A DNA stretch of 64,000 nt from Galeopterus variegatus (GCF_000696425.1 NW_007729415.1:64001-128000); one strand, 5' to 3'; positions 3,263 through 62,551 are shown, counted from the stretch's first letter. Numbers and translations: made by a program. The notes: a model not told the origin generated them from the sequence alone.

Positions 3263-3399
3263 GGGCCGAGCCCGTGGCGCACTCTGGAGAGTGCGGCCCT
3301 GGGAGCGCAGCAGCGCTCCCGCTGCGGGTTCGGATCCTATATAGGGATGGCCGGTGCGCTCACTGGCTGAGCCCGGTGCGGCCGGTCTCAAAAAAAAAA
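3263..3399 (+). mobile_element. tRNA-derived SINE, B-type, short copy
   Basis: gggccgagcccgtggcgcactctggagagtgcgg…ggatcctatatagggatggccggtgcgctcactggctgag then A9. Flanked by TSD aaaaaaaaggaactcca. Confidence 0.75.
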
Positions 3400-4256
3400 G
3401 GAACTCCATAAGGCTAATCTTGTCAGATTCATTTACCAAAGTATCTACTAACAGGTACTTTACAAATACTTATTGAATAAATTCTTCACCTTCAATATTT
3501 AAAGGCTGAGTTCCACCTCCCGAATTTTTATTTTCCTGCTCTCACAATCATTGTTAACTCCCTCTGAATTCCTCCCCCAACCCCACAAAAAAAAAAAATC
3601 TTTAAAGCCTCAGTTGGGATTGTGGGGCCCAAACTTGAATGCAACACTCCAAGAACGTAAGGTTCACCTGCCAAGGAGAACTGTCCACCCTCCACTCTTG
3701 GTGTCCCTGGCAAACCCAAGGCAGCCTTCTCCTTCTACAATCTGCATTTACAGATGGATTCCTAGAGTGTAAAGGGACCTGCGTTAAGGGAACACAGACA
3801 CAGAAAAGATCTCCCAGCTTTCCAGGCTGGCTGTTAGTGGTTTTGAGGCAGAGAGGGGAACAAAAGGCTGGGAACTTGGAAGAAACTGATGAAGGTTGCC
3901 TGGAAGGGTGCTGCTGGCAGCACGGAAGGCTCCCAAGTCTTTCGAGCTGAGGGGTGAAGTGTGGGAGAATAGTCATGAAGATTATGAAGTGACATGTTGA
4001 ATCACTTAACGCAGCACTCGGCAGAGTTAGGGGTTCCATAAATGCTGGTAATTGCTGGGGGGAAAGGATTGGGGGAGGAAGGAGATTATGAACGAGAAAG
4101 GGGAGATTAGATGGGATGTGGGGGCAGGGGGGAAGTGAGAATGAGTTAGTGAGACGACAGAAGAGGCATGAGGAGTCTGGGTGACGAAACACTGGGGGCA
4201 AAGGGAGTTGGGGATCTGGGGGATGGAGGACGGCACAAGTAGAGCGGCGCGTGTAC

Positions 4257-4500
4257 CTCCGGCGTCGGTGAGCACCTCCACGCGGCCGCTGAACATGGCC
4301 TTGAGCATAGTGTCCTGTCCCGTGAGGGTGCGCAGCGTGGTGTAGTGCAGCGAGCCGCCCACGTTTAGCTTCACGTACTTGCTGTTCGGGGTCAGAGGCT
4401 TGAGACCGTAGGCGGCGGAACCAGGCTCGAGACCCGAGGGCTTAGGGACTTCCAGCGACGGGGCCCCGGCTACCGCCGGGCCTGAGGCCTCGGCCGACAT
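4257..4500 (-). CDS. KCTD13: KCTD13 coding exon 1 ([82 protein letters not shown])
   Basis: ATG is the complement of 4498-4500 and the peptide matches the human KCTD13 N-terminus. Donor GGAG|gtacac at 4257/4256. The 336-aa ORF 4027..5037 is a GC-rich read-through of the 5'UTR and intron. Confidence 0.88.
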
Positions 4501-5350
4501 GCTAGGTGGCGGCAGCGGGCGGCGATCCCAGGCTCTCTCCGCGCCCTCTGGCCGGCTCCCCAAAGCCCCCGGACCCCAGACCTCAGGCCAGCCCGCTCGG
4601 CGCTCACGCCCACTCGTCGCCGCTACTCGGCAATACTGGCCCGCCGCCCCATCGCTCTCGCACCACCCGGAAACCGGCGCCGGGCAATTGCGCAGGCGCG
4701 TGCAGGCCCCACCCCTGACGGGGGGGGCGGTACTGCGCTGAGGAGCATGCGCAGTGGTCGCGGAGGGGGGCCAGTTGAGATGTCGCTTGCCGGCTGGGGT
4801 CGCTCTAACCGGGCGAGGTGCGCTTCTCTTGCGACACTTGGGGACCAGATGGAGGAAGCTCGCGCCTGCCCGATTTGAAAAGCGTAGTCCCCGACCTGTG
4901 ATTGGGTCTCTTCTCAGAGCGCTTTGCGGGCGTGGAGGGGAAGCTGAGGTCAAGAGAAGGGAGGCGTCCCTCCTCCCAGCCCCGCGCGCCTGGCCACCTG
5001 TGAGAACTGCGAAGTGCCAGGCCGGCCCGTGGCTCACTCGGGAGAGTGCGGTGCTGGTAACACCAAGGCCACGGGTTCGGATCCCATATAGGGATGGCCG
5101 GTTCGCTCACTGGCTGAGCGTGGTGCTGACAACACCAAGTCAAGGGTTAAGATCCCTTTACGAGTCATCTTTATATGGGATTAAAAAAAAAAAAAAAAAA
5201 AAGAACTGCGAAGTGCGGAGGGCAGCTCTTCAAGGAAGCCGAAGGCGGGTGGCTTCCCGGCAGTGGTGCTCGGGCGCCGAGCACTGGAGGCCTTTCTGAC
5301 GAGGGGCCGCTGAGACGCGGCGGTGCGGAGATGTGAGGAAGAGTGTGGCA
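4501..5350. promoter_or_regulatory. KCTD13: KCTD13 CpG-island promoter and 5'UTR
   Basis: Very high CpG and GC content. GC boxes (ccgcccc, gggcgg). NRF1-like gagcatgcgcag at 4743-4754. Confidence 0.7.
5019..5201 (+). mobile_element. tRNA-derived dimeric SINE (A-type) inserted in the KCTD13 upstream CpG island
   Basis: ggccggcccgtggctcactcgggagagtgcggtgctgg…gggttaagatcc… then A20. TSD agaactgcgaagtgc at 5003-5017 and 5202-5216. Confidence 0.85.
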
Positions 5351-6470
5351 AGAAGGGGGAAGGGCAGACCAAGAAGACCCTCAGGCAGGAACACGGGCGA
5401 AGGAGCAGAAAGAATGTCAGGGGGGCTGCAGAAAGAACGTCAGGGGGGCCGCAGCAGCTGAGCAAAAGTTCCAGAATCTCAGCTAATGTCACGAGACGTC
5501 GCACCCAACCCCGAAAGAAAGAAGAAATAAGTTAGGACTCGTTGACGAGAAGTATTTTAATCTAACCCAACCTGCATCCAGTTTAGAGGCTGATACATCA
5601 GAGATATAATAATTTACTTCGTGTATAGCGGGGGTGGGGGTTGCTGGAGGGAAAACCAAAGACGGAGTCAGAGTTCTAGTTTTAACCCTGCCAGCTGGGA
5701 GATCCTAGGCAAGGCACATCTCTCTGGGCTTGGTTGTCCTTTTCTGCTTAGCGAGGGGTGCAAATTTAAATGCCTGCAGGGAACAGGTAAGAGAGTAAAT
5801 GAGTGAAGTGGACCAGTTTTAAGGTATTGGGGAGAAAGGGGACTATGGTGATCTGGAGAGCTCATGTTCTACCAAAGGGGTTGCCAATTCTGATTTTTCA
5901 AGTGTAGTGGTGAAAAAGAGAAAAGCAGCTACTGGCAACTGGGAGCTGGTTTGCACTCTCCCCAGAAGCCTTGGTGTTGCTAAGAGCTGGCCTGGCATCA
6001 ACAGTGAGGCTGTCATGTTGTCCTGCTGAGCATAAACTATTTCACAAAACACCAATATCAGACAAGATCACTTTCTATAACTGACGGAACAACAAAAAGA
6101 CCATTCCATAATCATGTCTAAACACAAAAACAAGAACATTGTCCAAACCACAAAAATGACCAAGCCGAAGCCCCTGTCCCATAGTATAAATGACTGCTGC
6201 TGCTTTACCCCAAACAGCTTTAGTCCTGATTCATTCCTCCCATCTTCTAGATAAGAATTGTTAAGATAATCAAAAAAATTCTCCCTGCTTCCTGAAAGCA
6301 TCCAACCTACAGCAAATCTCTCCCTTTCTTGAACCCTCCTAGGAAATCACCTAACGCAAGCCCAAATCCTGTGATAAGTCCTTCCTAACATGAACTTCCG
6401 GAGATGTCCATGATTCCCCCTTGGATGAACTTGCTGAGATGTCTGTGGTGTCTGATCTTCCTTGTTCAAC

Positions 6471-7026
6471 TACAGTTGCATTTCTTTTTTTTTTTTTTTT
6501 TTTTTTAAAGATGACCGGTAAGGGGATCTTAACCCTTGACTTGGTGTTGTTAGCACCACGCTCAGCCAGTGAGCGAACCGGCCATCCCTATATGGGATCC
6601 GAACCCGGGGCCTTGGTGTTATCAGCACCGCACTCTCCCGAGTGAGCCACGGGCCGGCCCTACAGTTGCATTTCTTTTTTTTTTTTTTTAAAGATGACCG
6701 GGAAGGGGATCTTAACCCTTGACTTGGTGTTGTTAGCACCACGCTCAGCCAGTGAGCGAACCGGCCATCCCTATATGGGATCCGAACCCGGGGCCTTGGT
6801 GTTATCAGCACCGCACTCTCCCGAGTGAGCCACGGGCCGGCCCTACAGTTGCATTTCTTTTTTTTTTTTTTTAAAGATGACCGGGAAGGGGATCTTAACC
6901 CTTGACTTGGTGTTGTTAGCACCACGCTCAGCCAGTGAGCGAACCGGCCATCCCTATATGGGATCCGAACCCGGGGCCTTGGTGTTATCAGCACCGCACT
7001 CTCCCGAGTGAGCCACGGGCCGGCCC
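6471..7026 (-). repeat. Tandem triplication (units about 190, 183 and 183 bp) of an A-type dimeric SINE together with one copy of its TSD
   Basis: Unit = tacagttgcatttc + T(n) + SINE body. Copies 2 and 3 are identical (ccgggaagggg) and differ from copy 1 (ccggtaagggg). tacagttgcatttc also flanks the array at 6470 and 7027. Confidence 0.85.
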
Positions 7027-61641: not shown

Positions 61642-61735
61642 CGGAACGGAAACCACCACTGTTCAACATGAACGCGATGAGTGCCTTATACCACATTGCA
61701 CAGAATGAGTCCCCTGTGCTCCAGTCAGGACACTG
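61642..61735 (+). CDS. TAOK2: TAOK2 exon 9 ([31 protein letters not shown]+TG)
   Basis: ctctgtag|CG … CACTG|gtgagg. Confidence 0.88.
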
Positions 61736-61833
61736 GTGAGGACTGGGATTCCTGGGCCCACGCATTAGGCCAGGGGGTAAAGTTGCCTGACTTATGCCCT
61801 TCCAACCCTCTCCCACCCTCCTATGGCTTCCAG

Positions 61834-61915
61834 GTCTGAGTACTTCCGGAATTTTGTTGACTCTTGTCTTCAGAAAATCCCTCAAGACAGACCAACCTCA
61901 GAGGTTCTTCTGAAG
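61834..61915 (+). CDS. TAOK2: TAOK2 exon 10 ([28 protein letters not shown])
   Basis: ttccag|G TCT … AAG|gtgagg. Confidence 0.88.
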
Positions 61916-62362
61916 GTGAGGGCTCACTGGCCTAGCATTCTCCTGAACTGCAGCTTGTTAGAGCCACAAGATACCCCTCAATGAAATCAGTGGTTCTGTA
62001 CTCCTCCTCCACCAAGAGCTTCATTTATGAATACCCACCCCCGTCCCTAATGCCCAGTGGACTCTGTGTTTTATAAGATTTTGCCTACCAGACTGCCTTA
62101 GTTTATTAAGTAATAATTTATTTTCCCATCTTTTATTAATCAAAGATGTATGTAATTGTCAGCCAGAGCTTCTGGTCAGCGTGCGATAACCAGGGTTACC
62201 ACATTGATCTGATGTAATTCAAGCCAAAAGCCTGTGTAGCCTTATCATGGGTAAATGTATGATTACCCTTAGGTGTTTTTTGAGTCATCAAAAGTAGAGG
62301 TGTCCCATTCCCTGCATAGATTTTTGGGTGCCTAATGAGCCCTAGTTAGAAACTGACTTAGA

Positions 62363-62551
62363 GGGCCAACCTTTTGGCTCACTCGGGAGAGTGCGGCGCT
62401 GGGAGTGCAGCAGCGCTCCCACCGTGGGTTTGGATCCTATATAGGGATGGCTGGTGCGCTCACTGGCTGAGCGTGATGCGGGCAACACCAAGCCAAGGGT
62501 TGCGATCCCGTTACCAGTCACACACACACACACACACACACAAAAAAAAAA
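62363..62551 (+). mobile_element. B-type SINE in TAOK2 intron 10, tail converted to (CA)12 plus A9
   Basis: gggccaaccttttggctcactcgggagagtgcggcgctgggagtgcagcagcgctcccaccgtgggtttggatcctatatagg…. TSD tgacttaga. Confidence 0.8.

Follow-up and report, generated by a model that had tools for sequence, protein, structure and literature searches.

A multimerising tRNA-derived SINE family, very probably CYN/t-SINE, in the Sunda colugo ortholog of human 16p11.2

Introduction

The short interspersed elements (SINEs) of colugos (Dermoptera) are reportedly derived from isoleucine tRNA, consist of tRNA units only and fall into several subfamilies; the published forms CYN-I, CYN-II and CYN-III are said to be monomer, dimer and trimer. 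SINEBase cites two 2003 papers on tRNA-derived SINEs of colugos (CYN: Schmitz and Zischler, PMID 12878470; t-SINE: Piskurek et al., PMID 12885966); the same database defines a SINE as an interspersed, non-tandem repeat of <1 kb in which 60 nt or more are at least 60% identical to a tRNA, and lists rodent ID, camel vic-1 and armadillo DAS-I as "simple SINEs" of independent origin. The present analysis concerns a stretch of 64,000 nucleotides from Galeopterus variegatus (GCF_000696425.1 NW_007729415.1:64001-128000; hereafter the window), in which an initial annotation had claimed a lineage-specific, tRNA-derived SINE family resembling CYN. With a probability of about 0.93, these elements are the dermopteran CYN/t-SINE family, known since 2003, in the Galeopterus variegatus ortholog of 16p11.2. 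The finding is an ordinary one: a SINE family already known, in a known genome.

Results and Discussion

Host and census: TMEM219, spliced from the window, was 100% identical to the Galeopterus variegatus IGFBP-3 receptor isoform X2 over all 240 aa; the runner-up among 106 protein matches showed 90% identity, and the bat, carnivore, tree-shrew and primate orthologs at most 90%. By this identity the elements reside in a dermopteran genome; the window is the Sunda colugo ortholog of human 16p11.2, with the gene order KCTD13-TMEM219-TAOK2 as in human. Profiles and alignments were built from 24 A, 6 B and 6 C copies (the classes are described below) and the window was scanned by nhmmer; 63 merged intervals were obtained on both strands, corresponding to about 60 elements, because three B-long copies are each split in two. 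Class totals: A dimers, 26; C dimers, 6; short B dimers, 3; B-long, 3 (38 dimer-class copies); monomers, about 14 plus about 8 fragments (about 22 together). Core sequence amounts to 7,652 bp (12.0% of the window), and tails add ca. 1%, giving about 13%. The elements span 3263 (start of the first) to about 62,548 (end of the last, tail included). The initial annotation was thus reproduced in its copy number (about 60) and span (3263-62551), and was slightly high in its coverage (15 percent). Given about 60 copies in 64 kb, the genome-wide copy number is very likely far above 100.

The motifs quoted at the outset proved to be real, all being present far above chance as judged by shuffled or expected counts: A-type 5′ end GGGCCGGCCCGTGGCTCAC, 26 matches at ≤3 mismatches (0 in 100 shuffles); A-type 3′ end GGGTTAAGATCCCCTTACCGGTCATCTTT, 23 matches (expected 0); monomer A box TAGCTCAGTTGGTTAGAGC, 13 matches (0.01 expected); B box GGGTTCRGATCC, 30 exact matches (0.03 expected); B-type tail motif, 2 exact occurrences in the window. 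With respect to the SINEBase definition, the elements are 76-245 nt long, interspersed on both strands, and match the tRNA model over its full length (positions 1-71).

tRNA origin: Judged by their sequence, the elements are tRNA-derived and built solely of tRNA-Ile-like units and an A-rich tail. At the gathering threshold Rfam matched the window 21 times, in each case to the tRNA model, in almost every case over its full length, and never to another family; a permissive scan (E up to 1) added further tRNA matches, dimer left units among them. At E up to 1, Rfam matched 7SL/SRP to no part of the 64-kb window, which is therefore free of Alu- or B1-like sequence; a mir-6130 match (E = 0.36; 27.5 bits, gathering score 117) was rejected as noise. 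ARAGORN called 18 units tRNA, with the anticodons aat or gat (Ile), or gac; the anticodon loops of monomers are CTAATAA, CTGATAA and CTTATAA (Ile), and CTGACAA, one transition away. In a small panel of tRNA-Ile-AAT and eight other human tRNAs, compiled by hand and to be read as a lead, not as a database test, monomers and both A units were matched best by human tRNA-Ile-AAT (71-82% identity); the eight others showed at most 72% identity and scored below tRNA-Ile-AAT for every unit. A composition of tRNA-related units only, free of a tRNA-unrelated body or one derived from a long interspersed element (LINE), was found for A copies and monomers directly, and for B copies solely through homology.

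Retroposition: An automated search found a target-site duplication (TSD) of at least 10 bp behind an A-rich tail for 35 of the 38 dimer-class copies (typically 14-19 bp, often perfect); with the same procedure, 5 of 2,000 random 154-bp intervals succeeded. In all but one or two, the TSD starts with at least three A in its first 4 nt (AAAA, AGAA, GAAA, ATAA); the LINE-1 endonuclease is known to prefer targets of this kind. Where copies were read directly, an A-rich tail follows the element and direct repeats lie on either side. The A-rich tails, TSDs and AAAA-like sites are those of tail-dependent retroposons, and LINE-1 (L1) ORF2 fragments are present in the window. By analogy with Alu, ID and other tailed SINEs, we infer transcription by RNA polymerase III and dependence on LINE-1: transcription would start from the A and B boxes inside the left unit, the transcript would carry the A-rich tail, the LINE-1 ORF2 protein would nick TT/AAAA-like sites, and the RNA would be reverse-transcribed from its tail (target-primed reverse transcription), the insertion leaving a 10-19 bp TSD.

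Lineage restriction: With E < 1 as the limit, the A, B, C and monomer profiles matched nothing in the TMEM219 orthologs of two primates, the loci of tarsier (Carlito syrichta, 31.7 kb) and marmoset (Callithrix jacchus, 47.2 kb), together 79 kb, as compared with 228 raw matches in the window. The family is absent from these two primate loci, as expected of one specific to its order. The A-type 5′ end sequence had no match in the literature searched.

Assignment: Several points weigh against CYN/t-SINE. Its basis is host identity plus matching architecture, and the isotype was assigned with the hand-compiled tRNA panel. No full trimer occurs within the 64-kb window, the longest form being a dimer plus a half unit (3 copies). 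B-type elements have no Rfam tRNA match even at E up to 1, because they are too diverged, and are joined to the family only via profile similarity to C and A copies. The last point and the identity of B to A copies of only about 70-75% would suit an undescribed colugo family, or subfamilies, distinct from CYN/t-SINE, the candidates being B and B-long with their GAAAAAGACAAAA tail and half-unit repeat. This is nevertheless very improbable: B, C and A copies share the 5′ end, the unit boundaries and the B box and form a graded series through the C copies; the 2003 papers reportedly describe several subfamilies and multimers already; and the colugo genome, publicly available since 2014-2016, has very probably undergone standard repeat annotation.

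A cluster of tRNA genes or pseudogenes, with no SINE family at all, would explain why ARAGORN and Rfam call many units tRNA; it deserves next to no credence, as the copies have in common several features foreign to any tRNA, e.g., GGG(C) added at the 5′ end, ATATAGGGAT where the two units of a dimer meet, and a terminal TCTTT, bear A tails and TSDs, and lie in both orientations within introns, L1 fragments and one another, and as most units have broken stems (Rfam scores of only 27-47 bits). Just as remote is the reading that the genome is not a colugo's and the SINE one of another order (bat VES, horse ERE, tree-shrew Tu type III): VES and ERE begin in a way similar to the 5′ end GGGCCGGCCCGTGGC, but a tRNA-unrelated body, such as VES and ERE carry, is missing, and the 100% identity of TMEM219 to Galeopterus, with bat, carnivore, tree-shrew and primate orthologs at ≤90%, speaks for the colugo. 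Simple segmental duplication was rejected, since by TRF the tandem arrangement is confined to 6488-7041. The CYN/t-SINE assignment, by comparison, meets no conflict in any tested feature: host order, tRNA derivation with Ile-type anticodons, tRNA-related units only plus a tail, monomer, dimer and longer forms, and several subfamilies of different age are common to both. They differ in that the longest form here is a dimer plus half unit, that of CYN being said to have three full units. The likeness to CYN, the tRNA derivation, the lineage specificity and the distinctness from Alu, all put forward by the initial annotation, are accordingly upheld by the host identity and architecture, the Rfam and ARAGORN calls, the primate loci and the missing 7SL match, respectively.

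Comparison with other families: Primate Alu is similar in its head-to-tail dimer, the logic of its internal polymerase III promoter, its A tail, its TSDs (10-19 bp, at AAAA-like sites), its high density in DNA rich in genes, and the insertion of copies into or next to one another; it differs in origin, Alu being derived from 7SL RNA and the colugo units from tRNA. In this region the tRNA-only family appears to occupy the niche held by Alu at the primate ortholog. Rodent ID, camel vic-1 and armadillo DAS-I share with the colugo monomers a tRNA-like head plus tail and no body; their parent tRNAs and hosts are other ones, and the colugo family, in contrast to them, formed abundant multimers. The importance goes little beyond annotation: a SINE family of the colugo's own, made of tRNA units only, takes up about one eighth of the window and is a textbook case of multimerising SINEs without a LINE-derived part, a parallel to Alu among primates, the sister order. 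The presence or absence of young A copies (1-2% diverged) could be used as a marker between the Galeopterus and Cynocephalus lineages, whose split the colugo genome paper puts at about 11 Ma ago.

Structural Classes

The rows below rest on the nhmmer census and direct sequence reading; TSDs were found by automated search, and divergence is given from the class consensus.

A-type dimers: The consensus is of 154 nt plus tail, GGGCCGGCCCGTGGCTCACTCGGGAGAGTGCGGTGCTGATAACACCAAGGCCACGGGTTCGGATCCCATATAGGGATGGCCGGTTCGCTCACTGGCTGAGCGTGGTGCTGACAACACCAAGTCAAGGGTTAAGATCCCCTTACCGGTCATCTTT, with tRNA-like units at ~4-76 and ~78-149, followed by TCTTT-A(n); the A box and B box of the left unit are TGGCTCACTCGG and GGTTCGGATCC. 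The class comprises 26 copies, one of them 3′-truncated and one with internal deletions. A more diverged variant has the right-unit D arm CACTTGGGAGAGCG, resembling that of the left unit; the young variant has CACTGGCTGAGCG. These variants fit several successive source genes.

5019-5201 (+): A dimer with A-rich tail; nhmmer A profile 177 bits; 3.2% from consensus; TSD AGAACTGCGAAGTGC
6488-7041 (-): three tandem A copies, 183-bp unit = SINE + A tail + 14-bp TSD GAAATGCAACTGTA; cores 6507-6660, 6690-6843, 6873-7026
10939-11116 (-): A dimer within an older monomer (halves 11115-11171 and 10897-10938); TSD ATAACACCAAGGTC = monomer sequence
12717-12883 (+): A dimer; TSD AAAAATCTCCCAACA; right unit Rfam tRNA 44.9 bits
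13764-13930 (+): A dimer, older variant; 11.1% from consensus; TSD search found none
14126-14289 (+): A dimer, older variant; aligned to A consensus from position 5, first 4 nt unmatched
15972-16262 (+): two head-to-tail A copies; second copy 16142-16262
16312-16477 (-): A dimer; 1.3% from consensus; TSD AAAATTACCCCCATCA
18899-19092 (+): A dimer, long A/T-rich tail; nhmmer, TSD search
20487-20651 (-): A dimer; nhmmer, TSD search, consensus divergence
24484-24659 (-): A dimer, A23 tail; TSD AAAAGATCACTCTG; ARAGORN tRNA in both units (Val-gac, Ile-gat)
26595-26770 (-): A dimer; nhmmer, TSD search
27900-28062 (-): A dimer; nhmmer, TSD search
28566-28738 (-): A dimer, older variant; 10.4% from consensus
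29646-29813 (-): A dimer; 9.7% from consensus
29936-30102 (-): A dimer with internal deletions; nhmmer, TSD search, consensus divergence
31833-32001 (-): A dimer; 1.9% from consensus; TSD AAAAACAAATGTGGGG
32634-32802 (-): A dimer; nhmmer, TSD search, consensus divergence
37911-38078 (+): A dimer; TSD AAAAAGTCTTAAGATCCA
45793-45975 (-): A dimer, older variant, in a TMEM219 intron; nhmmer, TSD search, consensus divergence
51069-51235 (-): A dimer; nhmmer, TSD search
51579-51743 (-): A dimer; nhmmer, TSD search
60569-60734 (-): A dimer, in a TAOK2 intron; 1.3% from consensus

B-type, B-long and C-type elements: B elements are GC-rich; with their tails, the short ones measure about 180 nt and the long ones about 230-245 nt. 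Short B copies end in a tail AGTAAAAAAGACAAAAAGGA(n), their 3′ addition being the structured A-rich tail AGTAAAAAAGACAAAAAGGAAAAA and nothing more. In the three B-long copies, positions 110-162 of the B profile match twice, i.e., the 3′ half of the second unit comes once more after the dimer; B-long is thus a 2.5-mer, and the added tRNA-like piece is confined to these three B copies. An 8-nt insertion in the left unit is common to the B copies and three C dimers. C dimers are older and end in GGTCA-A(n); the A, B and C copies, with the same 5′ end, unit boundaries and B box, are graded via C copies such as 34502-34666.

8302-8483 (+): B dimer, structured tail AGTAAAAAAGACAAAAAGGAAAAAAAAAA; TSD AAAAAATTGTTCAGTTC
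25866-26040 (+): B dimer, tail motif as in the 8302 copy; TSD AAAATGCAGG(G/A)TGCTG
32276-32439 (-): B dimer with internal deletions; nhmmer, sequence, TSD search
17234-17462 (+): B-long, 3′ half of unit 2 repeated at 17399-17449, then GAAAAAAGACAAAAATGA(n) tail; second B-profile match; TSD
27191-27434 (+): B-long, (AAT)n tail; TSD ATAATGTTTTCATCCA
30461-30694 (-): B-long; nhmmer, sequence, TSD search
3263-3401 (+): C/B-like dimer without its 3′ third; TSD AAAAAAAAGGAACTCCA
8746-8905 (-): C dimer, older, ends GGTCA-A(n); nhmmer, sequence, TSD search
33197-33354 (-): C dimer, older; nhmmer, sequence, TSD search
34470-34666 (-): C dimer with the 8-nt left-unit insertion seen in B; nhmmer, sequence
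52042-52214 (+): C dimer, older; nhmmer, sequence, TSD search
62363-62548 (+): C dimer, (CA)n-A(n) tail; nhmmer, sequence, TSD search

Monomers: Monomers are about 76-88 nt long and read GGGCTGGCTRGTTAGCTCAGTTGGTTAGAGC...CCAGCCAGCTGCC-A(n), a single unit plus GCTGCC-A(n).

9619-9817 (-): two adjacent monomers (9619-9694, 9736-9817); Rfam tRNA 32 bits
10270-10347 (-): monomer; nhmmer, sequence, permissive Rfam scan
14841-14945 (+): monomer with A17 tail; ARAGORN, Rfam, nhmmer
15488-15559 (-): monomer with internal deletion; nhmmer, sequence
18488-18567 (-): monomer, anticodon loop CTAATAA (AAT = Ile); nhmmer, monomer alignment
21933-22050 (+): monomer; ARAGORN tRNA-Ile (aat); Rfam
25186-25261 (+): degraded monomer; nhmmer, sequence
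25763-25821 (-): 5′-truncated monomer; nhmmer, sequence
27508-27589 (-): monomer, best tRNA match of the window (Rfam, 47.3 bits); ARAGORN tRNA-Ile (gat)
28876-28970 (-): monomer; Rfam tRNA 45.5 bits
31171-31255 (-): monomer; TSD A(C/A)AAAAGTCAATAAATGTA
32478-32545 (-): 3′-truncated monomer adjoining the B copy 32276-32439; nhmmer, sequence
35967-36054 (+): monomer; nhmmer, sequence
39640-39743 (-): monomer with internal insertion, immediately 3′ to a C-terminal piece of L1 ORF2; nhmmer, PDB search for L1
46715-46802 (-): monomer; nhmmer, sequence
35046-35092 (-): monomer fragment; nhmmer
38842-38881 (+): monomer 3′ fragment; nhmmer, sequence
43954-44103 (+): two 5′-truncated monomer fragments (43954-44000, 44048-44103); nhmmer, sequence

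The lengths of the three classes were as first described (monomers about 76-88 nt; A dimers 154 nt plus tail; B about 180 or 230-245 nt), and the intermediate C-type copies were recovered at 8750, 33197 and 34502, with further ones at 52042, 62363 and 3263. An extra 3′ module, originally ascribed to the B type in general, is borne out by the half-unit repeat of the three B-long copies, the short ones having a patterned tail only; likewise, of the monomer, dimer and trimer-like forms proposed, the first two were found as such, and the "trimer-like" one is the 2.5-mer, with no full trimer in the window.

Age and Arrangement of the Copies

Divergence of A copies from their consensus is 1.3-11.1% (mean 5.4%, or 3.3% outside CpG sites), that of monomers about 14% on average. 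The youngest A copies (6507, 16324, 31848, 60581) are 1.3-1.9% diverged and have perfect 14-18 bp TSDs and pure A tails, which makes recent activity reasonable, on a scale of millions of years; the intact TSDs, long tails and recent activity claimed earlier are in keeping with this and with the 35 TSDs in 38 copies. A relative order of age is given by the nested insertion at 10897-11171, where the A dimer core 10962-11116 (-) interrupts a monomer, whose sequence ATAACACCAAGGTC it duplicated as TSD; the monomer is therefore older than the A copy. Monomers are the oldest layer, C dimers are older, and A dimers form the young, abundant layer. As to the order of subfamily descent, we infer that two monomer units would have been joined head to tail to give the dimers, and that B-long would have arisen later, when the 3′ half of the second unit was repeated within the GC-rich B branch.

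Two local arrangements are of a different kind. The array 6488-7041 (TRF: period 183, 3.0 copies, 99% matches; members 1.3-1.9% from the A consensus) looks like unequal exchange between TSD/tail copies, a possible SINE-derived seed of a tandem repeat, or like an assembly artefact. In the pair 15972-16262, A12GG links the two copies; the second stops ~33 nt short and has no tail, and (TG)CCCACA borders the whole pair on both sides. The pair could be a template-switch chimera from reverse transcription, or an insertion into a tail followed by deletion. There is a small chance that B and B-long, with their expanded left unit, half-unit repeat and conserved GAAAAAGACAAAA tail, represent an uncatalogued subfamily, that the pair catches multimerisation by template switching between two SINE RNAs, and that the array catches the seeding of a tandem repeat.

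Genomic Context

2606-4500 (-): KCTD13 coding exons; tblastn; ATG at 4500
42686-50825 (+): TMEM219 coding exons, complete, 240 aa; tblastn
~57800-64000 (+): TAOK2-like coding segments; recognised by eye in the list of open reading frames (ORFs)

The young A-type SINE 5019-5201 (+) lies within the GC-rich KCTD13 promoter region, ~520 bp upstream of the start codon. Degraded LINE-1 ORF2 fragments were seen at 11213-11575 (+), 39744-40073 (-) and about 12552-14320 (+); among eight ORFs from the suspected L1 fragments none was matched by Pfam, and a search of PDB sequences then confirmed two, 11213-11575 and 39744-40073 matching human ORF2p structures with E = 2e-13 and 5e-26, respectively. SINE copies sit inside L1 fragments, e.g., those at 12717, 13764 and 14126. 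An 18S rRNA-like fragment was found at 7450-7610 (-) (Rfam SSU_rRNA_eukarya, 26.6 bits, E = 0.0027, model positions 1285-1467); it is probably an old rRNA-derived pseudogene fragment, in which the stretches CCCAACTTCTTAGAGGGA and TGTGATGCCCTTAGA are still recognisable as conserved.

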